The notes under the pieces are model-generated. The model was not told where the DNA came from, ran no database searches, and saw nothing but the letters and a program-made list of their open reading frames with translations. This document shows positions 2,197 through 40,206 of a DNA stretch of 64,000 nt, one piece after another. Source of the DNA: Escherichia phage FL20; sequence record PP400781; one strand, written 5' to 3'. The translations under genes and the position numbers were made by a program. The stretch's first letter is position 1, and each line of letters begins with the position of its first letter.

Positions 2197-4197
2197 ATGA
2201 CTCTATTATCACCGGGTTTCGAAACGAAAGAAACTACTCTCTCCACTACCATTGTGCAATCTGCGACTGGTCGCGCTGCACTGGTAGGTAAATTCCAATG
2301 GGGTCCAGCTTTCCAGATTATTCAAGTAACTAATGAAGTTGAATTAGTTAATAAATTTGGTCAGCCGGATAATAACACCGCAGACTATTTCATGAGCGGG
2401 GCTAACTTCCTCCAGTATGGCAATGACCTGCGTGTTGTTCGTGTACTCAATAAAGAAAAAGCAAAAAACGCAACCGCACTGGCTGGTAACGTCGAGTTTG
2501 AAATCACAAACGAAGGTTCAAACTATGAAGTAGGCGATACCATCAAGATTAAACATAACCGTCAAGATATTGAAACGGCTGGTAAAGTAACTAAAGTTGA
2601 TGGTGATGGTAAAGTTAAGGGCGTATTTATCCCAACTGGTAAAATTATCGCTCACGCTAAAGCAATCGGTGTATATCCAGAACTTGATGGCGGTTGGACG
2701 GCAGAGTTCACTTCTTCGTCAGGTAACGGTAGTGCGGCGCTGTCAGTAACTAAAATTGTTACTGATTCCGGTCTTCTGTTAACGGATCTGGAAACTTCCC
2801 GCGCCAATATCACAAATCAGACTTTCTTGACTAAACTCCAGAAGTATGATATGCCAGCGGTAAGCGCGATCTATGCTGGTGAGATTGGCAACTCTCTGGA
2901 AGTGGAAATTCTGGCACGTAGCGCGTTTAAGAACACTGCACCGGATCTGACCATGTATCCTTATGGTGGCGAGCGCACCGCAGCACGCAACCTGATTCCA
3001 TATGCACCGCAGAATGATAATCAATATGCATTTATTGTTCGTCGCGATGGTGTTGTGGTAGAATCCTATGTACTGTCTACTCTGAAAGGGGATAAAGACG
3101 TATACGGCAATTCTATCTATATGGACGACTTCTTTGCTCGTGGTTCTAGCCAGTACATCTATGCAACCGCTCAAGGGTGGGTAGATGGTTTCAGTGGTAT
3201 TATCTCTCTTGCTGGTGGTGTTTCTGCTAACGAAGCAACGACTGCTGGTGTTGGTGCTGATCCGTTCATCGGTGCGATGATGCAAGGTTGGGATCTGTTT
3301 GCTGAACGAGAATCTATTCACGTAAACCTGTTGATCGCTGGTGCATGTGCTGGCGAAGGCGATGCGTTCTCTACCGTACAGAAACATGCTGTTTCCATCG
3401 GTGATGAGCGTCAGGATTGCTTAGTAATGGTTTCTCCGCCGCGTAGCACTGTTGTTAATATTCCGGTGACTACCGCAATTGATAACCTGATTGCATGGCG
3501 CGAAGGTTCAGGAAACTATAATGAAAACAACATGAACATTAATACCACTTACGCGGTTATTGATGGTAACTACAAATATCAGTATGACAAATACAACGAC
3601 GTAAACCGTTGGGTTCCGTTGGCTGCTGATATTGCTGGTTTGTGCGCTCGTACTGATGCTGTATCCCAGCCGTGGATGAGTCCGGCAGGTTATAACCGTG
3701 GTCAGATCATGAACGTGGTTAAACTGGCAATTGAGCCTCGCAAGGCGCACCGCGATCGTCTGTATCAGGCCGCAATTAACCCGGTAATCGGTGCTGGTGG
3801 TGAAGGTTTTATCCTGATGGGTGATAAAACCGCTACGACTGTTCCTAGCCCGTTTGACCGCATTAACGTTCGTCGTCTGTTTAACATGCTGAAAAAGAAT
3901 ATCGGCGATTCAAGCAAATACAAACTGTTTGAAAACAACGATAACTTTACTCGCGCTTCCTTCCGTATGGAGGTTTCGCAATATCTCAGCACGATTCGCT
4001 CTCTGGGTGGCATTTATGACTTCCGAGTACAATGCGACACCACGAATAACACGCCGGATGTAATTGATCGTAACGAATTTGTTGCTAGTATGTTCATCAA
4101 ACCAGCAAAATCGATCAACTATATCATGCTCAATTTCACTGCTGTTGCAACTGGTTCTGATTTTGACGAAATTATCGGTCCAGCCAACCAAGCATAA
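2197..4197 (+). CDS. 18: tail sheath protein gp18
   Basis: 666 aa; N-terminus MTLLSPGFETKE...QWGPAF and overall length match T4 gp18; synteny. Confidence 0.95.
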   Translation: MTLLSPGFETKETTLSTTIVQSATGRAALVGKFQWGPAFQIIQVTNEVELVNKFGQPDNNTADYFMSGANFLQYGNDLRVVRVLNKEKAKNATALAGNVEFEITNEGSNYEVGDTIKIKHNRQDIETAGKVTKVDGDGKVKGVFIPTGKIIAHAKAIGVYPELDGGWTAEFTSSSGNGSAALSVTKIVTDSGLLLTDLETSRANITNQTFLTKLQKYDMPAVSAIYAGEIGNSLEVEILARSAFKNTAPDLTMYPYGGERTAARNLIPYAPQNDNQYAFIVRRDGVVVESYVLSTLKGDKDVYGNSIYMDDFFARGSSQYIYATAQGWVDGFSGIISLAGGVSANEATTAGVGADPFIGAMMQGWDLFAERESIHVNLLIAGACAGEGDAFSTVQKHAVSIGDERQDCLVMVSPPRSTVVNIPVTTAIDNLIAWREGSGNYNENNMNINTTYAVIDGNYKYQYDKYNDVNRWVPLAADIAGLCARTDAVSQPWMSPAGYNRGQIMNVVKLAIEPRKAHRDRLYQAAINPVIGAGGEGFILMGDKTATTVPSPFDRINVRRLFNMLKKNIGDSSKYKLFENNDNFTRASFRMEVSQYLSTIRSLGGIYDFRVQCDTTNNTPDVIDRNEFVASMFIKPAKSINYIMLNFTAVATGSDFDEIIGPANQA

Positions 4198-4823: not shown

Positions 4824-6389
4824 ATGTTTAGTAGATTAAAAATGCTTGCGCGTTGGGCTGATTTTGACAACGACAAATACGAAGAACAAATTAAAGATAA
4901 AGCAGAGTCTATCGCCGCACCTAAAAACAATGATGGTGCTACGGAAGTAGAAATTAATGATAATTTACCTGCTAGCGCGTGGAACTCTCTTACCCAGCAA
5001 TTTTACAGCACCGACCAGAAAATCAGCACAACTAAGCAATTAGTTAACACATATCGCGGTTTGATGAATAACCATGAAGTCGAAAACGCTGTACAAAATA
5101 TCGTTAACGATGCGATTGTATTTGAAGAAGGTCATGAAGTTGTTTCATTAAATCTTGAGGCGACTGGCTTTAGTGAATCTGTAAAAGAGCGCATTCATGA
5201 AGAATTTAAAGATCTTTTAAACACTATCCAGTTTGATAGGCGCGGTCAGGATATGTTCCGTCGCTGGTATGTCGATTCGCGTATTTTCTTCCATAAAATC
5301 ATCGGCAAAAATCCAAAAGATGGTATCGTAGAATTACGCCAGCTTGACCCACGTAATCTTGAATACGTTCGAGAGATCATTACAGAAGACACACCGGAAG
5401 GTAAAATTTATAAAGCAACGAAAGAATATTTCATTTACACTGTAGGCAATAGCTCTTATTGCGCAGGTGGTCAAGTATTCTCTCCTAATAGTCGCGTTAA
5501 AATCCCGCGTAGTGCTATTACATACGCTCACAGCGGCTTGATGGATTGCGATGATAAATATATCATTGGTTATTTGCATCGGGCTGTTAAGCCAGCAAAC
5601 CAGCTTAAATTGTTGGAAGACGCAATGGTCGTTTATCGTATCACGCGTGCACCGGAACGCCGAGTGTTCTTTATTGATACCGGAAACATGAACAACCGCA
5701 AGGCTGCACAGCACATGAACTCAGTGGCACAGTCTTTTAAAAACCGCGTTGTTTATGATGCATCGACTGGTAAACTTAAAAACCAGCAAGCAAATCTATC
5801 AATGACAGAGGACTACTGGTTACAGCGTCGAGATGGTAAAGCAATCACCGACGTTACTACTTTACCCGGTGCATCCGGTATGAGTGATATCGATGATATT
5901 CGCTACTTTAACCGTAAATTGTATGAAGCGTTGCGTGTACCATTGTCACGCAGTAATCTCTCCGATGCTAATATGGTGATCGGTGGTGACGGTTCAGAAA
6001 TTACTCGCGATGAGTTGGAATTTTCGAAATTCATTAGAACTCTGCAATCACAGTTTTCGGAAGTATTGCGCGATCCTCTGAAATATAATCTGATTCTCAA
6101 AAATGTAATTACGGAAGACGATTGGGATCGTGAAATAAATAATATCAAGGTGGTTTTCCATCGGGACTCTTATTATACAGAAGTTAAAGACGCGGAAATT
6201 TTAGAACGTCGAATCGGTCTAATCGAACGTATTACACCTTACATTGGTAAATATTTCTCTAACCAGACAGTGATGCGTGACATTCTGAAATATACCGATG
6301 ACCAGATGGACACCGAGAAGAAACAGATCGAAGAAGAAGCGAACGATCCGCGCTTTAAACAAACTCCCGATGAAATAGAGGATTTTTAA
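4824..6389 (+). CDS. 20: portal vertex protein gp20
   Basis: 521 aa; synteny after gene 19; length matches T4 gp20. Confidence 0.9.
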   Translation: MFSRLKMLARWADFDNDKYEEQIKDKAESIAAPKNNDGATEVEINDNLPASAWNSLTQQFYSTDQKISTTKQLVNTYRGLMNNHEVENAVQNIVNDAIVFEEGHEVVSLNLEATGFSESVKERIHEEFKDLLNTIQFDRRGQDMFRRWYVDSRIFFHKIIGKNPKDGIVELRQLDPRNLEYVREIITEDTPEGKIYKATKEYFIYTVGNSSYCAGGQVFSPNSRVKIPRSAITYAHSGLMDCDDKYIIGYLHRAVKPANQLKLLEDAMVVYRITRAPERRVFFIDTGNMNNRKAAQHMNSVAQSFKNRVVYDASTGKLKNQQANLSMTEDYWLQRRDGKAITDVTTLPGASGMSDIDDIRYFNRKLYEALRVPLSRSNLSDANMVIGGDGSEITRDELEFSKFIRTLQSQFSEVLRDPLKYNLILKNVITEDDWDREINNIKVVFHRDSYYTEVKDAEILERRIGLIERITPYIGKYFSNQTVMRDILKYTDDQMDTEKKQIEEEANDPRFKQTPDEIEDF

Positions 6390-30894: not shown

Positions 30895-31074
30895 TTAGAA
30901 CATTTTTGAAATTAATTCTGCTTTGATTTCGCAGAGAACATCTAAAGATTTCTCGTCACCCGCTTTTGCTGCTTCTGCTTGCATTTTTGAAATGGCTTCA
31001 ATGTCAGTGCAATTATAAGCCGCTTGAACTTTAGCTATTGCGATGATTGCCGATTCGATGGTTAAGTGTTTCAT
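30895..31074 (-). CDS. small hypothetical protein (59 aa), PeSL-driven
   Basis: ATG at 31074 placed via the plus-strand track ORF frame; RBS GGAGAA; N-terminus MKHLTIESAI. Confidence 0.45.
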   Translation of the reverse strand: MKHLTIESAIIAIAKVQAAYNCTDIEAISKMQAEAAKAGDEKSLDVLCEIKAELISKMF

Positions 31075-31143
31075 GTTTGATTCTCCTTTCGTTTCGGTAT
31101 GTGTGCATTATAGGGGATCACCGATCCCCCTGTCAACAATTTT
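31075..31143 (-). promoter_or_regulatory. PeSL cassette copy 2 with GGGGATC-N3-GATCCCC palindrome in the promoter spacer
   Basis: Minus strand: TTGACA-aGGGGATCggtGATCCCC-TATAAT ... GGAGAA-N6-ATG. Confidence 0.75.
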
Positions 31144-31662
31144 TTAGTTATTTTTTAATTGCTCATCTTGCAATAGGGCAATCACATGCTGGCGATGTTC
31201 TTCCGATTGAGGCACACCGAAAAAGTTTGTTTTGTAGAAATACTCTAATCGGTCTTCTCGTGTGCTCTCTTCCATCATGATCGCGGGTAGTCCGAGATTT
31301 CGGAAACGTCGCTTTTCTGCTGGCGTAAAATCACTGTAATACAACATAGAATCATCATTACAAGCAATGCTAAACTCATCCTTCATAAAGGAGAATATTG
31401 CGTTTAAACGCTGTTTACCGTCCACGATTTCGATCTCATAGCGAGAGCCATCATCAATCTTAGCCATTGCGATAGCACCAACCGGAAAATCATTAATCAG
31501 GTTTTCGATAAACATACGTTTGTTTTCGGTGTCCCATACTAAAGGACGCTGATAATCTGGGTTCATGTTGATATAGCCATCTTCTAACCATGCATCATAA
31601 ACAGAGATGACAAAGTTTTTAGTATTGGTATAGTAACGGCGTTTAGGCGTTAAACGGTTCAT
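31144..31662 (-). CDS. DUF262 / ParB-like (GmrSD N-terminal domain-like) protein
   Basis: Track ORF 31144-31698; Met13 start (RBS AGGAG) gives 172 aa; motifs YQRPLVW...LI..FPVG and the DGQQR-type box IVDGKQRL. Confidence 0.7.
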   Translation of the reverse strand: MNRLTPKRRYYTNTKNFVISVYDAWLEDGYINMNPDYQRPLVWDTENKRMFIENLINDFPVGAIAMAKIDDGSRYEIEIVDGKQRLNAIFSFMKDEFSIACNDDSMLYYSDFTPAEKRRFRNLGLPAIMMEESTREDRLEYFYKTNFFGVPQSEEHRQHVIALLQDEQLKNN

Positions 31663-31663
31663 G

Positions 31664-31996
31664 TTATAGTCTCCTGAATGGATCATCACGTAAATCAATA
31701 TCTTTTAAGAACTCATCCCATGAATGCCGGATATTGTTCTTAATTCTCCAGATAAGCGCAGGGATTGAACGCTCTCCCATCTGGAAGTATGGATCATATG
31801 ATCCGTATGCCCAATATGCTACTACAATTCCACAATCAGCGCAATAGTATTCTATTTCACTTGCTGGCGACCAAAGTCCATCAATATGATCGGTGATCTT
31901 GCTTTCGATGTTATGGCTATGACAATCAGGGCAACGGATGCAATGACCTTGTTTATCGTAATTTGACGTTAGCGAATACTTAAACAATCTCATCAT
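31664..31996 (-). CDS. zinc-ribbon protein (two CxxC pairs)
   Basis: 110 aa; CIRCPDC ... CADCG; translationally coupled within the operon. Confidence 0.6.
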   Translation of the reverse strand: MMRLFKYSLTSNYDKQGHCIRCPDCHSHNIESKITDHIDGLWSPASEIEYYCADCGIVVAYWAYGSYDPYFQMGERSIPALIWRIKNNIRHSWDEFLKDIDLRDDPFRRL

Positions 31997-32709
31997 AGAT
32001 CCTTATTTGCTTCAAATACTGCCTTTGCGAATCCTCGCGGGGTAAGTGACCTGATAGTCTTTGTTTTCGTTCCTTTCCCGCCTAGCTTAGAATGCTGTTT
32101 ACTGTACCCTTTATTAATCTGCAAAGGTTTCTTTTCTGGCATTATAAAGCCTTGTCCGGTCCATAAGCAAGTCTTTTTTGGGTACATATCACGGGCGGCA
32201 ATATACTCAGGAAACGTAGGATGCTTATCATCTTCCGGCAAATAACCGCCATATTCCCACGGATGGAACATATAATCAGGCTTACGCCACATGCTAGAGA
32301 TAACGCTTACAGGATTCTCTATCATGTAGGGAACTCCTAGCCATTCACCCAAATAAGCGGTTATTTTAGCTGCCCTTACATCATGAACTTGAATCAATGG
32401 TCCTTGTTCTAGTTTCTTTCGTTCAAAGTGCGCAGCGCCACTAACAGCTAAATTGGTGCACGGTGGGAATGCAAAGATAATATCCGGTTTCCCCCATTCA
32501 AGGTCCATTGCTCTTTCCAGCCAATTCAAATCAATCCAGGTGTTTACATAGGTAATGTTTTGATGTTCAAATCGGGTATTATATTTTTTGTATGTACCGT
32601 GGTCGCCATCATCAGCATTAAAGCAGATCACCTTATGACCTGCTTTAGCCCATTCTAGCCCCATTATCCCCGATCCGTCAAAGTTGCAGAATATTAATTT
32701 TTGTTTCAT
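31993..32709 (-). CDS. C5-cytosine methyltransferase catalytic core lacking a target-recognition domain (238 aa)
   Basis: Motif I-like FCNFDGSGIMGLEWAKAG, motif IV FAFPPCTNLAVSG (Pro-Cys catalytic dipeptide), motif VI MIENP, motif IX-like TIRSLTPRGFAKAV; too short for a canonical enzyme with TRD. Confidence 0.6.
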   Translation of the reverse strand: MKQKLIFCNFDGSGIMGLEWAKAGHKVICFNADDGDHGTYKKYNTRFEHQNITYVNTWIDLNWLERAMDLEWGKPDIIFAFPPCTNLAVSGAAHFERKKLEQGPLIQVHDVRAAKITAYLGEWLGVPYMIENPVSVISSMWRKPDYMFHPWEYGGYLPEDDKHPTFPEYIAARDMYPKKTCLWTGQGFIMPEKKPLQINKGYSKQHSKLGGKGTKTKTIRSLTPRGFAKAVFEANKDL

Positions 32710-32951
32710 ATACGACCCTTTAACCCAGCACAGATTTTAGTCGGTTCTTTACCGTGCCACATTAAGTAAAGTCCGTTAATGCGACCTTGTTTTGTGTGTG
32801 ATTCTTTTCTGATCTTCTTATAGTGTCGTGCTTCCTCAACCGATTGTTTAGAATACCAATCATAAAGGAAGAGGAACAAAGGCCAGCCATTAGCGACCTT
32901 AATACAGTTATTCAAAAATTCCTTATTTCGTTTAATTAATTTTCTTTTCAC
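32706..32951 (-). CDS. hypothetical basic protein (81 aa)
   Basis: ORF with 4-bp overlaps to both neighbours in the operon. Confidence 0.5.
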   Translation of the reverse strand: MKRKLIKRNKEFLNNCIKVANGWPLFLFLYDWYSKQSVEEARHYKKIRKESHTKQGRINGLYLMWHGKEPTKICAGLKGRI

Positions 32952-33199
32952 GCTGCCCCCATTGGTTTGATAGTAACAGAATCTAAAAGACCTTTGTTAG
33001 CCAGTTCGCGGCAAGTTTTCAGATCCGCAACTTCCCAGCCAGCCGCAATCAGGTTATCAATCAGGCTGTTAGCAACTTCTTCGCTCATGAAAGAGCACTG
33101 TTTGCCGATGGTGTAGCGCACACGCTGTAATTTCAGTTTACGGAAGCCTTTAACGTTCAGGTCTTTAGCGATTTTCTTTGCGGTTTCGATGTTAGCCAT
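32948..33199 (-). CDS. hypothetical protein (83 aa), first gene of the PeSL-driven operon
   Basis: ORF immediately downstream of PeSL copy 3. Confidence 0.55.
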   Translation of the reverse strand: MANIETAKKIAKDLNVKGFRKLKLQRVRYTIGKQCSFMSEEVANSLIDNLIAAGWEVADLKTCRELANKGLLDSVTIKPMGAA

Positions 33200-33280
33200 T
33201 GTTTGATTCTCCTAAGTGGTATCTCGTCTTGATGGTTGTATTGTAGGGGAGTTATCCTCCCCTGTCAACACTTTTTATAA
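33200..33280 (-). promoter_or_regulatory. PeSL cassette copy 3 (palindrome ggggag-ttatc-ctcccc in spacer)
   Basis: Minus strand: TTGACA-GGGGAGgataaCTCCCC-TACAAT ... GGAGAA ... ATG. Confidence 0.75.
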
Positions 33281-33315
33281 AATTATTTGTTAATTTCTGG
33301 TGCGTTGCTAGGATA

Positions 33316-33450
33316 TTAACCTTCTTTAACTCCGAGGTATTTCGCAACCATCCCTACAATCTTCTGTGCTACTACAATGTCAAATTTCAGATAATCTTCG
33401 CCGTGGGTTTCAATGATATATGCTTCACATGCTGCTTTAGTCTCGAACAT
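33316..33450 (-). CDS. small protein (44 aa), nonsense-truncated paralog of ORF 36566-36733 (approximate ends)
   Basis: MFETKAACEAYIIETHGEDYLKFDIVVAQKIVGMVAKYLGVKEG; the paralog continues ...YYPSNAPEINK, and here that tail is still readable after a TAC to TAA change. Confidence 0.45.
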   Translation of the reverse strand: MFETKAACEAYIIETHGEDYLKFDIVVAQKIVGMVAKYLGVKEG

Positions 33451-33526
33451 TTTTATTCTCCTATTTCGTTTCGTTATGTGTGTATTATAGGGGATCTCCC
33501 GATCCCCGTCAACAACTTTTTTAAAA
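33451..33526 (-). promoter_or_regulatory. PeSL cassette copy 4 (GGGGATCtcccGATCCCC palindrome)
   Basis: As copy 2; -35 variant TTGACG. Confidence 0.7.
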
Positions 33527-33808
33527 TTATTCGTGATTAGTTTCGATGTTGTGCATTTTGCACCAGTTCAGCCAATCACCCAGATCCTGATAGTTAATTC
33601 TTTTATCTGCTGCCATCGTTTTTGTCTTGATACCCATATGTGCGTTATGAGTAAGCATTTTTACAGTGAACTCAATTTTATCACCTTTAGCTTTAACATC
33701 AACCAGTTTGGTCCACTGGCTACCAGCTCCGCGAATGTTCATACCAACGATGTTTCCGATGTATGCTTCTTTGTTTTTCAGGATTTCGGTTGCTTTGATG
33801 AATTTCAT
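33527..33808 (-). CDS. hypothetical protein (93 aa), PeSL-driven
   Basis: ORF directly after PeSL copy 5. Confidence 0.55.
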   Translation of the reverse strand: MKFIKATEILKNKEAYIGNIVGMNIRGAGSQWTKLVDVKAKGDKIEFTVKMLTHNAHMGIKTKTMAADKRINYQDLGDWLNWCKMHNIETNHE

Positions 33809-33878
33809 TTTTGATTCTCCAGTTCGTTTCGGTATGTGTGTATTATGCTATGTTCTTACTTTGGTGTCAACAACTTTT
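33809..33878 (-). promoter_or_regulatory. PeSL cassette copy 5
   Basis: Conserved -35/-10/leader/RBS layout on minus strand. Confidence 0.65.
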
Positions 33879-34148
33879 TTAGATATTTTCAGAAATAAAT
33901 TTTAAAACTTGACGTAAATGTTTCTCATCTTTGATAGTCGCCGGAAGTTCTTCTTTTACTTCCTGTGCAAGATAGATATTTCCGTTCCAAGTGAAAGATC
34001 CGTCTTCGTTTACGCGATAGCTGAACATCCACTCGCAATCATTTTCGATTTCATATACACACAGAAGGGTGTAATCGTTAAAGCTATTGATTTCAAGGTC
34101 GAAGCCGTGACGTTTTGCAAAGTTGGTAGTGGTTTTAGTCAGCGCCAT
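33879..34148 (-). CDS. hypothetical protein (89 aa), PeSL-driven
   Basis: ORF directly after PeSL copy 6. Confidence 0.55.
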   Translation of the reverse strand: MALTKTTTNFAKRHGFDLEINSFNDYTLLCVYEIENDCEWMFSYRVNEDGSFTWNGNIYLAQEVKEELPATIKDEKHLRQVLKFISENI

Positions 34149-34225
34149 TGTTTGATTCTCCTAAGTGGTATCTCGTTTCGATGGGTGTATTATGCTATAG
34201 GCGTGATCTGGTGTCAACAACTTTT
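34149..34225 (-). promoter_or_regulatory. PeSL cassette copy 6
   Basis: Conserved cassette layout. Confidence 0.65.
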
Positions 34226-34242
34226 TTAAAATTTTATGCAAT

Positions 34243-34267
34243 AAAAAAGCCGACACTAAGGTCGGCT
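34243..34267 (-). terminator. rho-independent terminator after gene 34275-34583 (approximate)
   Basis: Stem agccgac/gtcggct with T-tract on minus strand. Confidence 0.6.
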
Positions 34268-34274
34268 AATAAAA

Positions 34275-34583
34275 TCATTTAGACAAATAATCATTCAGTG
34301 CAATCCGGTTGGCGTATGCTGGTGTTACGTCAATCGCAATCACTTTAACGCGTGCTTTCTTGCGACCTGGGTTTTCTCGTAACCAGTGCTCATGACCGTG
34401 AACATTTTTATACTGCGATGCTTCTTCGAAGGTACGGATCGGACCTGGATAATCTGCGTAAAGGATCTCTAGGTCTTCGGTGATGTAAAAATATACATCA
34501 TAATTACTGTTCTCTAGTTTAAGCAGAGACTTTCGGAACATTGGGAGATTTTCGCGGGTAAATTCAAAGATATTATCTTTCAT
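34275..34583 (-). CDS. small early protein, HxHW-family member a (102 aa)
   Basis: C-terminal motif HGHEHW ... VKVIAIDV shared with five paralogs. Confidence 0.6.
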   Translation of the reverse strand: MKDNIFEFTRENLPMFRKSLLKLENSNYDVYFYITEDLEILYADYPGPIRTFEEASQYKNVHGHEHWLRENPGRKKARVKVIAIDVTPAYANRIALNDYLSK

Positions 34584-34636
34584 AGTATTATCCTCAATAG
34601 TTGGATGAAAAGGGGTGGGGCTTAACGCCCCGTATA

Positions 34637-34924
34637 TTAAAACAGTCCTTCCTGTACACCGTAGTAGAGTTCATCGCTGATAATTTCATTAATGCGACGG
34701 TGTGCATATTCCTGATTTGCGAAGTTATCAGCAAGTTCTACTTTAGTTTCGCCGTCATGAGTCCATTTAGTGATAACTTTACCATCTGCAAATTTGAAGT
34801 TGAACTCTTTAGCTACCGCATCGCGTACCAGACGTGCGAACTTGTTGTTACGGATTGCATTATCGGTTTCGTGTGCAGCGTGAGCGAATTTGTTAACTTT
34901 CAGAGTGATAGTAATGTATGCCAT
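34637..34924 (-). CDS. hypothetical protein (95 aa), PeSL-driven
   Basis: ORF directly after PeSL copy 7. Confidence 0.55.
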   Translation of the reverse strand: MAYITITLKVNKFAHAAHETDNAIRNNKFARLVRDAVAKEFNFKFADGKVITKWTHDGETKVELADNFANQEYAHRRINEIISDELYYGVQEGLF

Positions 34925-35005
34925 AATTTGATTCTCCTAGTTAGAAAGTGTATCTCGTTTCGATGGGGATATTATGCTATACACCCGATCTTATGTCAAC
35001 ACTTT
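34925..35005 (-). promoter_or_regulatory. PeSL cassette copy 7
   Basis: Conserved cassette layout. Confidence 0.65.
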
Positions 35006-35284
35006 TTATAAAATAATTTTTTGATATTTTTCTATGATGTTTGTGTAGGTCACGTCAACCGCTAGCACCGTTGCTTCGAATCCACCGTTTAACCAATGGC
35101 TATGATCATGATCGTGAAAGAAACCTAGACCAGTACGAAGACCTTCTTTATATTCGGCGCGTACATTTAGATCATCATCGATAAACAGATAAAACCATGA
35201 ATTTTTACTAGGATTGATGATACAACCTTTCAGATTAGGGAGAATATCACGACTAAGAATAAACTTATCACCTACTTTGAGCAT
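35006..35284 (-). CDS. small early protein, HxHW-family member b (92 aa from Met31)
   Basis: Track ORF 35006-35374; internal ATG with RBS GAGGAA; motif HDHDHSHW ... TVLAVDV. Confidence 0.55.
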   Translation of the reverse strand: MLKVGDKFILSRDILPNLKGCIINPSKNSWFYLFIDDDLNVRAEYKEGLRTGLGFFHDHDHSHWLNGGFEATVLAVDVTYTNIIEKYQKIIL

Positions 35285-35298
35285 AATATTTTCCTCAC

Positions 35299-35607
35299 TT
35301 ATAAAGTTTGACCGTTGTTTTTCGCGTAATGCTGAATGCGTGCTTGATCTGCTTCCGCTGGTGATAGATTCCATGCAACCACTACAACTTCTGACGCATC
35401 GTCATCCGTTTTTGATACCCAATGATTGTGATTCATACAGTTATTTGCTATCGAGTGAGAAAATGATTGCGTCACTGGAGACGTATAATCATAGTAACGG
35501 ATTTTCAGATTTTCATCAACGTACAAGTAGATCGTATACGGCTTATATTCAGTAACCAGTAACAGACAGTTACGCAATTCTGGGAAAATCTTTTTAGTTA
35601 ATTTCAT
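35299..35607 (-). CDS. small early protein, HxHW-family member c (about 102 aa from Met28)
   Basis: Track ORF 35299-35688; motif NHNHW ... VVVVAWN. Confidence 0.55.
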   Translation of the reverse strand: MKLTKKIFPELRNCLLLVTEYKPYTIYLYVDENLKIRYYDYTSPVTQSFSHSIANNCMNHNHWVSKTDDDASEVVVVAWNLSPAEADQARIQHYAKNNGQTL

Positions 35608-35608
35608 T

Positions 35609-35848
35609 TTATAATCCTCGGTCGCGGCTATAGTACACGGTACGCCATACAATTTCATGTTTCGTGTCGCTCCAGCACACGATCTCATTTACTCTTAAAT
35701 CTTTGTTATCAACAAAAGATGAACATTGTGACGCTTCTTTCATCATTTTATCTGCTGTTTTCTCATCAAATACAGCACAGATTTCTTTATACACTCGATA
35801 ATCTTTGAATTGACTCTGAATACCCATAATTAACACCATTCCAACCAA
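35609..35848 (-). CDS. hypothetical protein, member 1 of a two-gene paralog pair
   Basis: Shares block FK.YK.Y ... A.KMM.(E/D)AS.C.SF with ORF 35787-36050; start uncertain. Confidence 0.5.
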   Translation of the reverse strand: MVGMVLIMGIQSQFKDYRVYKEICAVFDEKTADKMMKEASQCSSFVDNKDLRVNEIVCWSDTKHEIVWRTVYYSRDRGL

Positions 35849-36050
35849 TTGTTTTTGAGAAAACGTTTATCCACTGTTGAGTGTAGCATGTTTCTTTCCA
35901 TGATACAATACGAGTAGAATAATGGTTTTTGTTTCCAGAAAAGGACGGGCATTTTGATGCATCTTCCATCATCTTTTCGGCGAACTCTGGTGCGTATACT
36001 CGCAGGATCTGTTGATATGCTTTGTATTCTTTAAATTTGCTCATAATCAT
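35787..36050 (-). CDS. hypothetical protein, member 2 of the paralog pair
   Basis: See ORF 35609-35848. Confidence 0.5.
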   Translation of the reverse strand: MIMSKFKEYKAYQQILRVYAPEFAEKMMEDASKCPSFSGNKNHYSTRIVSWKETCYTQQWINVFSKTIGWNGVNYGYSESIQRLSSV

Positions 36051-36309
36051 TCACTACCTTATCAGCTTCTTTTGTTGTTTTTACATCAACTGCGATAACT
36101 CGTAAAGGTTCGTCATGGTTCCACCAGTGGTCATGAATATCAGCTTGTGATTTATCACAAAAGGAATCACGAATATCATTTTTACATTTATAGCTAATGT
36201 GACCGTCATAGTCAACATAAAGGTAATTATCGAAAATCGGCGTTTTTAAGATCATACCGAAAAATCTTTCTTTGTGTGTCTTATCCAGTGTTGCAGTAAT
36301 TCGCATCAT
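36031..36309 (-). CDS. small early protein, HxHW-family member d (92 aa)
   Basis: Motif IHDHWW ... LRVIAVDV. Confidence 0.6.
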   Translation of the reverse strand: MMRITATLDKTHKERFFGMILKTPIFDNYLYVDYDGHISYKCKNDIRDSFCDKSQADIHDHWWNHDEPLRVIAVDVKTTKEADKVVNDYEQI

Positions 36310-36321
36310 AATATATTCCTC

Positions 36322-36501
36322 TTAGAAAGGGATGGTCATTTCTTGAGCTTGTACATTCTCGTTAGGATTAAACTTCATCCAGCCGATATTGTCTACCAGC
36401 ATATGCACATTTTTATCATATCCTACGTGGGTAGTCAATACTGTATGTGCTTTACCTTCAATGATGAGTTCCATGTACTTCTGAACTTCGATAGCTTTCA
36501 T
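36322..36501 (-). CDS. small hypothetical protein (59 aa), PeSL-driven
   Basis: Ends placed via the plus-strand track ORF frame; RBS GGAGAA; N-terminus MKAIEVQKYM. Confidence 0.45.
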   Translation of the reverse strand: MKAIEVQKYMELIIEGKAHTVLTTHVGYDKNVHMLVDNIGWMKFNPNENVQAQEMTIPF

Positions 36502-36565
36502 TTTGATTCTCCGTTTGTTGTCTTGATGGGAGTATCTTACTACTCCCTTTAATCATTGTCAACTA
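36502..36565 (-). promoter_or_regulatory. PeSL cassette copy 8 (palindrome gggagta-tcttac-tactccc spanning the -10)
   Basis: Conserved cassette layout. Confidence 0.7.
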
Positions 36566-36733
36566 TTATTTGTTAATTTCCGGTGCGTTGCTCGGATAGT
36601 AACCTTCTTTAACACCTAGATATTTTGCAACCATTCCGGTGATCTTCTGTGCTACTACGATATCGAATTTCAGGTAGTCTTCACCGTGGTTTGCTACAAT
36701 GTATGCTTCGCATTCTGCTTTAGTCTCGAACAT
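36566..36733 (-). CDS. small protein (55 aa), intact paralog of ORF 33316-33450
   Basis: Track ORF 36566-36769; true start is Met13 (MFETKAECEAY...); the upstream 12 codons are PeSL sequence read in frame. Confidence 0.55.
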   Translation of the reverse strand: MFETKAECEAYIVANHGEDYLKFDIVVAQKITGMVAKYLGVKEGYYPSNAPEINK

Positions 36734-36803
36734 TTTTGATTCTCCTATATCTCGTTGGTATGTGTGCATTATAGGGGATCACCGATCCCCTGTCAACAAC
36801 TTT
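36734..36803 (-). promoter_or_regulatory. PeSL cassette copy 9 (GGGGATCaccGATCCCC palindrome)
   Basis: As copy 2. Confidence 0.75.
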
Positions 36804-37106
36804 TTATTCTTCGTCTTTATCTTTATATGCGTATTTCATAAATTTGTCTGCTACTTCGTCCGCGTTTTCAGGTTCTACATCTGACGCTAGGACAACAGCT
36901 AGTTCGGTTTTGTCGTTTCCATCATACCAATGATTATGAGTGTCTTTTTCTTCGATATAAAACGAATCATTTGGAGTTGGGCGACAATATACGTCTAAAT
37001 TCCCATCGATATAAAAGATCCAATCCGAATACAAAATGATTGTTTTAGCCAGATTTTTATTGTCTCTTACAAAAGGTTCCGCGACAAATAGCTTAGTTTG
37101 TTCCAT
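36804..37106 (-). CDS. small early protein, HxHW-family member e (100 aa from Met20)
   Basis: Track ORF 36804-37163; motif THNHW ... LAVVLASDV. Confidence 0.55.
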   Translation of the reverse strand: MEQTKLFVAEPFVRDNKNLAKTIILYSDWIFYIDGNLDVYCRPTPNDSFYIEEKDTHNHWYDGNDKTELAVVLASDVEPENADEVADKFMKYAYKDKDEE

Positions 37107-37122
37107 AGTAATTTCCTCAAAA

Positions 37123-37314
37123 TTATACAGCTTCGTAAACTTCCCAATGTCCAACACCAGCACGCTTAACGAAAAGGTTTTCTTTGATGTTATTCATAAA
37201 CGTCTGGATGGATTTAATGCGGTTGGAAGGTTTCCAGTCTTCGTTGGCATTGCGGCGATACATCATAACATTACCAGTTCGCTTATATTCAGCAACCATT
37301 TTAAGACCACACAT
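37123..37314 (-). CDS. hypothetical protein (63 aa)
   Basis: ORF with RBS GAGGA 7 nt upstream of the start. Confidence 0.5.
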   Translation of the reverse strand: MCGLKMVAEYKRTGNVMMYRRNANEDWKPSNRIKSIQTFMNNIKENLFVKRAGVGHWEVYEAV

Positions 37315-37370
37315 AATATTATCCTCAATTTGTGGGAGAGTATTACCCTCCCGATTATTGTTATACTACA

Positions 37371-37691
37371 TTACGCAAAATGGCGTGTCAATGCTTCTTT
37401 TGCTGTTCCGCTAAGATTCTCGATCTCTCCTGGCATAACATCAACCGCAAGAACTTCTACAACATCCTCTGATCCTAACCAGTGAGTATGACCTTTGTAG
37501 AACTTGATAACCAGACTACCTTCCTCATCCCATTTAACGCTATCGCTAGCCCACCACACATCACCGTCGATAAAGTTGATGTAAAGCACACTACGCCACA
37601 TTGAATCGGTTACTTTCAATATTGCGCCTTTCATCTCTTCCACGGTGTGGTCTTCCATTTTGAAGACCTCGCCTACTTGAACTTTTGCCAT
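37371..37691 (-). CDS. small early protein, HxHW-family member f (106 aa from Met31)
   Basis: Track ORF 37371-37781; motif GHTHW ... VEVLAVDV. Confidence 0.55.
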   Translation of the reverse strand: MAKVQVGEVFKMEDHTVEEMKGAILKVTDSMWRSVLYINFIDGDVWWASDSVKWDEEGSLVIKFYKGHTHWLGSEDVVEVLAVDVMPGEIENLSGTAKEALTRHFA

Positions 37692-37692
37692 G

Positions 37693-37959
37693 TTACATGC
37701 TCCGAATATGTTTAGCTGCATCTTCCAGTTCGTCGATAGTGACACTGTGTGCCAGTAAGTGTACTGGTTGTGGTTCTTCACCTTCCATAGTATTGATCAG
37801 ATGACCGTTTCCTGGGTGGAATGTATCGTTGCCGTTCCAAATAGCATACACATCATCTTCTGTTACGTAGATAATAAGTCCAATCGGTGATTCTGGTAAT
37901 TGAAAAATTTTACCCACTGCATCTTTGCGATTGTCTACGATATCTTTTACTGTCTTCAT
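37693..37959 (-). CDS. hypothetical protein (88 aa)
   Basis: ORF tightly packed upstream of member f. Confidence 0.5.
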   Translation of the reverse strand: MKTVKDIVDNRKDAVGKIFQLPESPIGLIIYVTEDDVYAIWNGNDTFHPGNGHLINTMEGEEPQPVHLLAHSVTIDELEDAAKHIRSM

Positions 37960-37978
37960 TTAGTTACCTCTCGTTAAA

Positions 37979-38158
37979 TTACATCACAATCACGCCAGCC
38001 GTAGAAAGTTGATGTTTCAACTGAGCATTTTCTGCTACCGTCAAATCAATGATTTCTTGTGACGCTGCAATCATATAACCATTGGTGATATTGTTTTGCA
38101 TCAGTTCAATGGTTTCTTCGTTGTAGCGGATTTTAGCGATGATTTCGTTGAAGTTCAT
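37979..38158 (-). CDS. small hypothetical protein (59 aa from Met23), PeSL-driven
   Basis: Track ORF 37979-38224; the first 22 codons are PeSL sequence (same artefact as at 36769). Confidence 0.5.
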   Translation of the reverse strand: MNFNEIIAKIRYNEETIELMQNNITNGYMIAASQEIIDLTVAENAQLKHQLSTAGVIVM

Positions 38159-38234
38159 TTTTGATTCTCCTAGTTCGTTTCGGTATGTGTGTATTATAGG
38201 GGATCGGTGATCCCCTGTCAACAACTTTTCTGAA
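38159..38234 (-). promoter_or_regulatory. PeSL cassette copy 10 (GGGGATCggtGATCCCC palindrome)
   Basis: As copy 2. Confidence 0.75.
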
Positions 38235-38711
38235 TTATTTTTCTTGATGCTCGCGCTCGTACTTTTCGAAATAAAATTCTACTGGCTGGTCATGAATTGA
38301 CAGCAAGCCAAAGCGTTTAGCCGCTCGCAATCCCATATTGCGCTGAATGTACTTCTGGAAGTTCTCGCGTATACACTTACGCCAGTATTCTAAGCCCATA
38401 CAGCTTTTATAAAGATTGCATTGCACACACGCCGGATTCATGTTATCAAGTATATCATGCTCCGGTTTATGCATTCCTACAACCTTATACTTCCACGATC
38501 CATCATCATTACGGGCAATTCGTCCATTTTCATCATAGACTACCTTTGAGCGTCGCAATACTGGTTTGATGTGGTCTGCGTGCCAGCGATCCCCTAGTTC
38601 CTCGCCACAATAGGCGCAACGTCCACCATATTTCATTTTCAGGATCTGGCGTTGCTCTTTCTTTGACAATTTTTTAGGTTTAGGGGCTTTCGCCCCTTCA
38701 TTATCACACAT
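38235..38711 (-). CDS. HNH homing endonuclease
   Basis: 158 aa; CAYCGEEL ... HADHIKP ... N ... CVQCN (Cys-x2-Cys / His-Asp-His / Cys-x2-Cys HNH signature); inserted next to the ligase gene. Confidence 0.7.
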   Translation of the reverse strand: MCDNEGAKAPKPKKLSKKEQRQILKMKYGGRCAYCGEELGDRWHADHIKPVLRRSKVVYDENGRIARNDDGSWKYKVVGMHKPEHDILDNMNPACVQCNLYKSCMGLEYWRKCIRENFQKYIQRNMGLRAAKRFGLLSIHDQPVEFYFEKYEREHQEK

Positions 38712-40206
38712 CGAATACCTCTTTTACTGTATTTGCAGTGGTCTTGTCGTAGCGAATACGTTTGATGATTGGGAGAAATAAAGAGAACTCCGGTTCATCT
38801 TCTTTACGTGATTTGCTGCGGATATACCCGTTGCATGTCATCTCAATGACTTTTCCAATCAGGTTATGACGGTCAGACCATAACATTTCTCTGTCAAGTT
38901 CATTTCGACGGTCAAACGGAATCACACGTTCAATACCATCATCGCCTTTTTCGGTTGTGGTGTCGGTCAATCCCGATCCGGTGTTAGTCATCATTCGTCC
39001 GCACGCACTACGGACAGTAAAACCTCCTACCTTATTAGGATCTTTACTATGCGGATATACATCAACAATTTCCGCGTCGAAGTCAATCACTTCTTTAAAT
39101 TTAACCTGATCTTTACTGCGACGATCTTCAAATACACCATGTAAATTTTTAAGGATAATACCTTCTAAGCCCATGTTTACATAGCGATGATATACTTCGC
39201 GAGCTTCATCGATATTGTTAACTACAGTATTTTCGATTATCTGAACACGAGGATCGTTAAGTTCTTCAACAATCTGTTTTAGTTCTTCGAATCGATCTTT
39301 ATATTGCTTCGTTGCTTTCTCGTTTCCGTAATACACATCACGGTCGATAACATCCCAGACAGTGTAAACAATACATTGGGCTTCTTCTTTTGGAATAGTT
39401 CCTTTCAGTGATTTGTTGAGGATACCATTTCCGGTCTGACGGTCTGCAACAACGGATTCTTTTACTGCTTCCGCTACTGGCGTTAATGGCATTTCCTCTT
39501 CTTCAAATATCCATGACAGAGTACCATCATAAACGCTTTCAACGAAGTTCTGCGCTGGTGTTTGCGAAAGGGTAGGCATATATACCAATTCGCCATCTAG
39601 AACAATTCCACGGCCTCGTAGACGCTCTAAAACCGCAAACAAATCATCAAGTCCCTGATAGGTATTACCTGAGCGGGTATAGATTGCTAATGTTTCCCCG
39701 TCAATATCAGCCATACCACGAGCGCCATCGCTTTTAAGTTGTGCATACGCCGGATACTTGATATTAGCAATAGTCTTATCAGAACATGACGATGCAAGGT
39801 GACACGGTTGCTGGGGGATCAGTTTCTTCCATACCTTGTTTGCAGTGGTAGCGGAACAACCACATTCCAGATCACGATTCAGAACCATCATTGCAACTTT
39901 AGCATCATCTTCTGACAAGCAAGTCAGAGTATCGGTAACTAGCTGTAATGCTGCGTTACCAGTTACTTGACGCGTGGCAAGTTTATTTTTAAAGACCTGT
40001 AATGCACCGGATAAAGACAATACAGACGAATAGCGAGATGGTTTATCGTATTTCTTTACGCCAAACGTAACCTGTTTGCAATATGCCAGATAAAAGCATT
40101 CTTTCAGTGTTTCATTGCTTGCAGATTCTTTCAGGATCTTTTCTTTCAGCGATGTTTTGTCGGTCGCTGCAAGCTGGTTAATGATATTAAGAATTGACAT
40201 TTTCAC
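38704..40206 (-). CDS. 30: ATP-dependent DNA ligase gp30
   Basis: 500 aa; blocks LATRQVTGNAA, LKSDGARGMA (KxDG adenylation motif), VLDGELVY match T4 DNA ligase. Confidence 0.93.
   Translation of the reverse strand: MKMSILNIINQLAATDKTSLKEKILKESASNETLKECFYLAYCKQVTFGVKKYDKPSRYSSVLSLSGALQVFKNKLATRQVTGNAALQLVTDTLTCLSEDDAKVAMMVLNRDLECGCSATTANKVWKKLIPQQPCHLASSCSDKTIANIKYPAYAQLKSDGARGMADIDGETLAIYTRSGNTYQGLDDLFAVLERLRGRGIVLDGELVYMPTLSQTPAQNFVESVYDGTLSWIFEEEEMPLTPVAEAVKESVVADRQTGNGILNKSLKGTIPKEEAQCIVYTVWDVIDRDVYYGNEKATKQYKDRFEELKQIVEELNDPRVQIIENTVVNNIDEAREVYHRYVNMGLEGIILKNLHGVFEDRRSKDQVKFKEVIDFDAEIVDVYPHSKDPNKVGGFTVRSACGRMMTNTGSGLTDTTTEKGDDGIERVIPFDRRNELDREMLWSDRHNLIGKVIEMTCNGYIRSKSRKEDEPEFSLFLPIIKRIRYDKTTANTVKEVFDV

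Follow-up and report, generated by a model that had tools for sequence, protein, structure and literature searches.

Escherichia phage FL20 carries, within a window of 64,000 nucleotides (nt) from sequence record PP400781 (the whole stretch of DNA analyzed here), two copies of a small open reading frame (ORF) between positions 33316 and 36733. Each copy is preceded by a promoter-early stem-loop (PeSL), an element described in RB49-like phages (Arbiol et al. 2010, PMC2839356). We consider it very likely that the two are old paralogous cassettes of PeSL plus ORFan, that copy 1 has been cut short by an ochre stop codon private to FL20, and that the long ORFs called mechanically at two PeSLs of this region are artifacts. 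PeSL cassettes, both genes, and the truncated coding sequence (CDS) of copy 1 were already known. What is added here is that the stop is private, that the duplication is ancient and constrained, that the lost tail is conserved, and that the long ORFs are artifacts.

A stop codon in copy 1 that appears private to FL20

Both copies lie on the minus strand, which carries every gene in this part of the window. Copy 1 (33316 to 33450), the orthologue of ORF191 of phages RB49 and Phi1, is a 44-amino-acid (44-aa) ORF, MFETKAACEAYIIETHGEDYLKFDIVVAQKIVGMVAKYLGVKEG, that ends at the TAA at 33316 to 33318. Copy 2 (36566 to 36733), the orthologue of ORF205 of the same phages, is an intact 55-aa ORF, MFETKAECEAYIVANHGEDYLKFDIVVAQKITGMVAKYLGVKEGYYPSNAPEINK, that starts at the ATG at 36733. 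RB49 and Phi1 annotate each of these genes at 168 nt and 55 aa, and RB49 ORF191c (NP_891762.1) and ORF205c (NP_891776.1), as well as Phi1 ORF191 and ORF205, resemble their FL20 counterparts in gene order, orientation, and start codon. The FL20 copy 1 DNA is 98% identical to that of RB49 and Phi1, and the copy 2 protein is 98% identical to that of RB49 and 94.5% identical to that of Phi1. However, FL20 copy 1 is unlike its RB49 and Phi1 orthologues in having a TAA at codon 45, which leaves 44 aa, and a C-to-A change at position -4 in the leader.

A preliminary description of this DNA, made from the sequence alone, had attributed the short form of copy 1 to a single TAC-to-TAA change followed by codons that are still readable, and this is what we find. 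Beyond the TAA, the copy 1 frame continues as TAT CCT AGC AAC GCA CCA GAA ATT AAC AAA TAA (33283 to 33315, minus strand), which represents the former C-terminal codons for YPSNAPEINK and the original TAA stop and is predicted to be untranslated. Copy 2 reads TAC TAT CCG AGC AAC GCA CCG GAA ATT AAC AAA TAA at the same place. The conversion of the Tyr45 codon from TAC to the ochre codon TAA is a C-to-A transversion on the coding strand; on the plus strand, base 33316 is T in FL20 and G in all relatives.

The genus Krischvirus comprises the RB49-like, T4-type phages of Escherichia coli and Shigella. In a nucleotide comparison, the region from 33200 to 36820 matches 58 phage records at 94 to 98.5% identity, all of them Krischvirus, with FL15 the closest; FL15 and FL20 have been reported to be highly syntenic (PMC12032242). 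A 90-nt probe over the site finds 20 records with 100% identity when it is written with TAC; with TAA in its place, the probe gains exactly one mismatch against each of the 58 records, all of which have TAC. Tyrosine is also found at position 45 in copy 2 and in all distant homologues. Among ~15 billion proteins, there is a single exact match to the 44-aa protein, XAO15361.1 of FL20, while the untruncated version of the copy 1 protein is found in 218 contigs. The exact copy 2 protein has among its accessions XAO15373.1, which belongs to the same accession series as XAO15361.1. Based on the TAC codon in every one of the 58 records and the tyrosine in the paralogue and the distant homologues, the direction of change is established as TAC to TAA, and the allele is a singleton that is private to the FL20 genome.

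Compared with FL15, the 325-nt cassette of copy 1 differs at three positions, which are -104, -4 (33454), and the nonsense base, and the nonsense allele carries no further disabling changes, as would be expected of a recent private allele. Locally, FL20 is ~1% diverged from every sampled relative (2 of 251 and 2 of 211 bases), and 58 differences in 12.1 kb set it apart from RB49, FL15, and Phi1 together. At ~1% private divergence, only ~0.3 changes are expected in the 33-nt tail, and therefore the intact tail dates the mutation very little. The comparison places the truncation no more finely than after the split from FL15-like phages. The second change listed above, at 33454, is also C to A on the coding strand; it lies in the spacer between the Shine-Dalgarno (SD) sequence and the ATG of copy 1 and is absent from all relatives examined (GGAGAATAAAAATG versus GGAGAATCAAAATG).

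The lost tail and its protein family

Of the residues removed by the stop, Y45, Y46, P47, S48, N49, and A50 are invariant in an alignment of the closer relatives, and remote homologues keep the tail motif as VGYYPSN and CGYAASN. In the best AlphaFold2 model, which is confident in one of five runs, residues 44 to 47 form a strand. FL20 copy 1 would thus yield a 44-residue protein without 11 conserved residues (YYPSNAPEINK) and is probably a null or a weakened allele. The loss of the copy 1 tail would be tolerated, as ORFans of this kind are expected to be nonessential, and it may be buffered by copy 2, which is intact and, by our reading, has a strong promoter to itself. Tolerance also fits with the existence of natural single-copy genomes and with the separate PeSL (33268 to 33240) of the ORF190 homologue downstream, which makes a polar effect unlikely.

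Both copies match PHROG 8009, a family annotated as of unknown function: copy 2 over positions 1 to 55 of 55 (E = 1.4e-38) and copy 1 over positions 1 to 44 of 55 (E = 7e-29). There is also a weak match to phrog_485, likewise of unknown function, and a Pfam search with the ORF191/ORF205 family protein gave no match. When 1.84 billion cluster representatives were searched exhaustively with HMMER, real relatives came from three clusters only, the remaining matches being one chimeric protein and short stretches of long proteins. The AlphaFold2 model has a predicted local distance difference test (pLDDT) score of 81.9 in one of five runs and of 48 to 59 in the others. When it was compared with the PDB, no neighbor with an E value below 2 was found, and comparison with BFVD returned family members only, including the GEC-3S orthologue (template modeling score of 0.93 against that independent model) and a Henu8 protein with 35% identity. 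The protein is most likely a small early accessory protein with a role in host interaction.

Homologues with 46 to 70% identity are present in unrelated siphoviruses, which include Swiduovirus (swi2, SeSz-2, D10, Pu29, and Bas81), Sashavirus (Sasha, Sergei, and Solent), and others. These proteins share the G-Y-Y/A-P/A-S-N tail with the FL20 family; in contrast to the situation in FL20, the gene is present in a single copy, and no PeSL was seen upstream of it in a related metagenomic contig (L004). The homologues lie at 3001 to 3156 in the swi2 locus (L009) and at 2492 to 2680 in the Sasha locus (L010). Because the siphovirus homologues belong to a short cassette that lies next to the large terminase gene on the opposite strand, the gene looks like a mobile accessory gene that has moved horizontally, and the distribution of PHROG 8009 suggests the same.

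An old duplication in which both copies are constrained

Local tblastn placed the similarity between copy 1 and copy 2 far above chance (E = 3e-30) and detected no third copy in the window. The two are identical at 39 of 44 residues (89%), but their coding nucleotides are only ~84% identical, with 19 synonymous and 6 nonsynonymous differences. The earlier characterization of the products as near-identical proteins is therefore apt for the proteins and does not extend to the DNA. Synonymous divergence (dS) between the copies is 1.07 and nonsynonymous divergence (dN) is 0.048, which is a dN/dS ratio (omega) of 0.045, and the same picture is seen in RB49 and Phi1. In the tail codons, the two paralogues differ by synonymous changes only. 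Pairwise alignment of the two loci with their flanks, the check that the preliminary description had proposed, shows that homology between the cassettes extends from the A-rich tract before the -35 hexamer to the stop codon, which fits a duplicated unit of PeSL plus ORFan.

Of the 58 Krischvirus records, 51 contain the pair of copies. The copy 2 type occurs alone in five records (MIZ4, MIZ5, UPWr_E1, Brandy, and JK32) and the copy 1 type alone in two (Cognac and FL04). Based on a dS of ~1, the low omega, and the presence of both copies in 51 of 58 records, we conclude that the duplication is old and genus-wide and that both paralogues are kept under strong purifying selection, tail included. 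The proposal that copy 1 represents a recent truncation of a duplicated module thus holds for the stop, which is private and would postdate the split from FL15-like phages, but not for the duplication, which is ancient. Either copy is dispensable in nature, since single-copy records of both types exist. The idea that copy 1 is an old pseudogene was considered and rejected, as TAC is present in all relatives and omega is low.

Promoter, hairpin, and start codon of each copy

In a PeSL, the upstream gene ends in an A/T-rich tract just ahead of the -35 box, a promoter with sigma-70 consensus hexamers and a stem-loop come next, and an SD sequence and the start codon of the following gene complete the element (PMC2839356). 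PeSLs are further described as having promoter and terminator or attenuator activity in vivo and as sites of homologous recombination by which ORFan cassettes are lost or gained (PMC2839356). The stem-loop is often of the form GGGG...CCCC and may occupy five possible positions relative to the promoter, most commonly between the -35 and -10 hexamers (PMC2839356). The view that each FL20 copy stands behind a PeSL of its own is borne out, in that the genetic setting, promoter hexamers, stem-loop, SD sequence, and start codon were all found at both copies. The PeSL of copy 1 (33451 to 33529, minus strand) begins with the stop codon of the ORF193 homologue (33527 to 33529) in an A/T-rich tract (...GAATAATTTTAAAAAAGTTGTTGACG) ahead of the -35 hexamer. 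The promoter has a -35 hexamer of TTGACG (33512 to 33507), a 17-nt spacer, and a -10 hexamer of TATAAT (33489 to 33484), which is 11 of 12 consensus bases. The hairpin GGGGATC-GGGA-GATCCCC (33507 to 33490) has a folding energy of -14.9 kcal/mol (z = -3.0 versus shuffled sequences), and the SD sequence GGAG (33461 to 33458) lies 7 nt from the ATG.

In the PeSL of copy 2 (36734 to 36806, minus strand), the stop codon of the ORF206 homologue (36804 to 36806) lies in a corresponding A/T-rich tract (...GAATAAAAAGTTGTTGACA). The promoter, with a -35 hexamer of TTGACA (36796 to 36791), a 17-nt spacer, and a -10 hexamer of TATAAT (36773 to 36768), has 12 of 12 consensus bases. The hairpin GGGGATCGGTGATCCCC (36790 to 36774) has a folding energy of -13.5 kcal/mol (z = -2.4), and GGAG (36745 to 36742) lies 8 nt from the ATG. 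The 70 nt ahead of the copy 2 ATG are identical to RB49 PeSL206/205. A PeSL206/205 fused to lacZ was reported to be a very strong promoter that gave about 13,000 Miller units, the source phage not being stated (PMC2839356). The copy 2 PeSL is predicted to be a strong promoter by virtue of this identity, and both copies would be expressed early, as we infer by analogy with RB49 and Phi1.

The PeSLs of the two copies are no closer to each other than to other PeSLs, and the copy 1 leader GAAACGAAATAGGAGAAT recurs ahead of the unrelated ORF209 homologue. The next PeSL 3' of copy 1 (33200 to 33282, minus strand) serves the ORF190 homologue and has its -35 hexamer at 33268, the hairpin GGGGAGGATAACTCCCC (-19.4 kcal/mol, z = -5.3), and a -10 hexamer of TACAAT. 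The next PeSL 3' of copy 2 (36502 to 36565, minus strand), ahead of the ORF204 homologue, is of a different subclass, in which the hairpin GGGAGTA...TACTCCC overlaps the -10 hexamer TAAGAT. The PeSL of the ORF209 homologue (38159 to 38234, minus strand) has its -35 hexamer at 38221 to 38216, the hairpin GGGGATCACCGATCCCC, its -10 hexamer at 38198 to 38193, and the leader GAAACGAACTAGGAGAAT. A search of positions 31000 to 39000 with Rfam found no RNA family. Compared with the PeSL cassettes of T4-type phages described earlier (PMC2839356; Comeau et al. 2014, PMC4122927), the FL20 elements differ in nothing essential. The FL20 layout is Phi1-like, with one PeSL between ORF193 and ORF191 and no ORF192.

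Two of the mechanically called ORFs extend upstream into these elements. The preliminary description had taken the openings of the ORFs at 36566 to 36769 and 37979 to 38224 to be PeSL leader read in frame, and both ORFs do begin with the residues that it quoted. The first, of 67 aa ('MHTYQRDIGESK...'), starts at a spurious in-frame ATG (36767 to 36769, minus strand) formed by the closing AT of the -10 hexamer TATAAT and the G that follows. The second belongs to the ORF209 homologue (37979 to 38158, minus strand), a 59-aa ORF whose true start would be the ATG at 38158; the mechanical ORF reaches the TTG at 38224 (81 aa), which directly precedes the -35 hexamer, so that the PeSL is read in frame as 'MLTGDHRSPIIHTYRNELGESK'. 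The ATG at 36769 and the TTG at 38224 are each upstream of the point where the promoter concerned is expected to start transcription, and no SD sequence was found ahead of either. In contrast, the ATGs at 36733 and 38158 are preceded by GGAG at the right distance.

Orthologues point the same way. The Phi1 orthologue of copy 2 has TATACT and hence no upstream ATG, and in an ECD7-like genome (L002) a copy 2 leader shorter by one base leaves the upstream ATG out of frame. Copy 1, with TATAATA, has no such upstream ATG. RB49 and Phi1 annotate the short forms, and RB49p209 and phi1p209 are both 180 nt. Because the long forms start inside or ahead of promoter hexamers, have no SD sequence, and lose the codon or the frame in orthologues, we judge that the 67-aa and 81-aa ORFs are, on this sequence evidence, mechanical artifacts of reading a PeSL in frame. 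Public annotations nevertheless include the 67-aa form, in which MHTYQRDIGESK precedes the 55 aa, as G2248 QBO62361.1 and as WPK33374.1, and it is on record for 12 contigs.

Surrounding genes and natural recombinants

The FL20 region is the hyperplastic region of Krischvirus (RB49-like) phages, known to be prone to shuffling. As in RB49, it is flanked by the alt and DNA methyltransferase genes on one side and by the HNH endonuclease and gp30 DNA ligase genes on the other. Compared with RB49, FL20 is without ORF192, ORF195/196/196.1, and ORF210/211 (compared at 33451 to 33529, 34149 to 34274, and 38159 to 38234, respectively), and their absence looks like typical modular shuffling at PeSLs. Arbiol et al. 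(2010, PMC2839356) used the ORFans ORF192 and ORF210 for their experiments on PeSL mini-circles, and the published 191-194 mini-circle includes ORF191 (PMC2839356). Between the ORF197 and ORF194 homologues, where RB49 has ORF195/196, there is a canonical intrinsic terminator (34248 to 34267, minus strand; AGCCGACCTTAGTGTCGGCT and then TTTTTATT), which is not a PeSL-type hairpin.

Several sets of paralogues, all on the minus strand, occupy the remainder of the region. Proteins of 88 to 106 aa related to phrog_9345 are encoded at 34275 to 34583 and 35299 to 35607 (strong matches) and at 35006 to 35284 and 36804 to 37106 (weak matches). Three more, at 36031 to 36309, 37371 to 37691, and 37693 to 37959, have in common a C-terminal H-x-H-W...V-x-A-x-D-V motif that was recognized by eye. 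Two phrog_8471 proteins (35609 to 35827 and 35787 to 36050) have overlapping ends. None of these regional sets (34275 to 37959) gave a Pfam match above the curated cutoff. The 88-aa protein encoded at 37693 to 37959 has no PHROG or Pfam match and no RB49 or Phi1 counterpart; FL15 has a gene of equal length at the equivalent position (L007, 2116 to 2382).

Two of the single-copy phages have mosaic structures. In FL04 (L012, PP358550.1; ~4890 to 5170), the single gene copy stands behind a chimeric PeSL, the left part of which is an ORF206-type tail plus TTGACAGGGG, whereas the loop, the leader, and the ORF to the right are of the copy 1 type; FL04 has none of the genes from ORF205 to ORF193. It seems that the two PeSLs recombined in nature, with a crossover within the stem-loop, and that the DNA between them was thereby deleted. 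The sole copy in Brandy (L011, MZ504876.1; 1201 to 1368) is of the copy 2 type in a copy 2 context, and at about nt 50 to 75 it has a run of copy-1-type synonymous variants (GGC GAA GAT TAT CTG AAA TTT GAC ATT), which suggests gene conversion between the paralogues.

Discussion

The account favored here, i.e., old paralogous cassettes, a private ochre stop in copy 1, and artifactual long ORFs, has points that weigh against it. The stop is known from a consensus sequence only, and this consensus may be in error or may reflect a minority variant of the stock. Loss of function is deduced from conservation only, and the structure model is confident in one run of five (pLDDT of 81.9 versus 48 to 59). 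The timing of expression and the transcription start sites are carried over from work on RB49 and Phi1.

The first of these points leads to the explanation that the real phage has TAC and a 55-aa copy 1, and that the TAA arose as an error in sequencing, assembly, or consensus calling or is a minority variant. The TAA is indeed a singleton among 58 genomes and ~15 billion proteins, a second private C-to-A change lies just 138 nt away at 33454, and C-to-A or G-to-T changes make up 14 of the 58 differences from RB49, FL15, and Phi1 together. Four neighboring C-to-A changes, at 33728, 33599, 33454, and 33316, are absent from these three phages. However, the best match elsewhere to the stretch containing 33728, 33599, and 33596 has only 2 mismatches, which means that at least one of these three changes occurs in another phage. 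The spectrum consists mostly of transitions (38 of 58), and the neighboring genes show ~1% genuine private divergence, synonymous changes included. The local and 12.1-kb substitution spectra gave no clear sign of a mutational artifact, although this check is not decisive. Copy 2 has TAC, and mis-mapped reads from the paralogue could therefore not have produced the TAA. Consensus substitution errors are uncommon in de novo assemblies of Illumina MiSeq reads. The FL phages were sequenced by this method (2x250, de novo assembly; PMC12032242). Taking both sides together, we regard an error or a minority variant as unlikely.

If the stop is accepted as real, the 44-aa protein might still be a functional, selected variant, for example, one that relieves a cost or has an altered activity during propagation on E. 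coli K-12. Residues 1 to 44 hold most of the secondary structure predicted in the AlphaFold2 model, natural genomes with one copy missing indicate that dosage is flexible, and premature stops are frequent in laboratory passage. Against this, the lost residues Y45 to A50, invariant in closer relatives, are largely kept even in remote ones, the model has a strand at residues 44 to 47, and a comparable truncation at this site is seen in no other genome (58 records and ~15 billion proteins), which makes a selected short form very improbable. Alternatively, the stop might be read through or suppressed, so that both the 44-aa and the 55-aa products are made, given that the codons past the TAA are intact and in frame. 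An unchanged tail is, however, what ~1% divergence predicts. In E. coli, termination is most efficient at TAA; furthermore, the window was found to contain no gene for a tRNA or a suppressor, and the stop is conserved in none of the relatives (58 records). Read-through can be given hardly any credence.

We also considered a broader interpretation, in which the PHROG 8009 ORFan is a mobile early accessory gene with a role in host interaction and the FL20 ochre allele is an adaptive or neutral natural knock-down. This idea draws on the occurrence of the gene in three unrelated phage groups, the two constrained and diverged copies in Krischvirus, and the traces of exchange between copies. We think it improbable as a whole; if it were true, FL20 and FL15 would constitute a ready near-isogenic pair for finding the function of the gene.

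Under the favored account of old cassettes and a private stop, the truncation is an ordinary strain-specific mutation that has left FL20 with a shortened, 44-aa allele of a conserved 55-aa gene, and its importance is mainly for annotation. For the same purpose, when genes are called in RB49-like phages, the GGAG-N7-8-ATG with which each PeSL ends on its 3' side should serve to fix the starts. For the RB49-like phages themselves, PeSL-mediated deletion would be illustrated in nature by the chimeric PeSL of FL04, and exchange between paralogues by the mosaic copy of Brandy, consistent with the published model.

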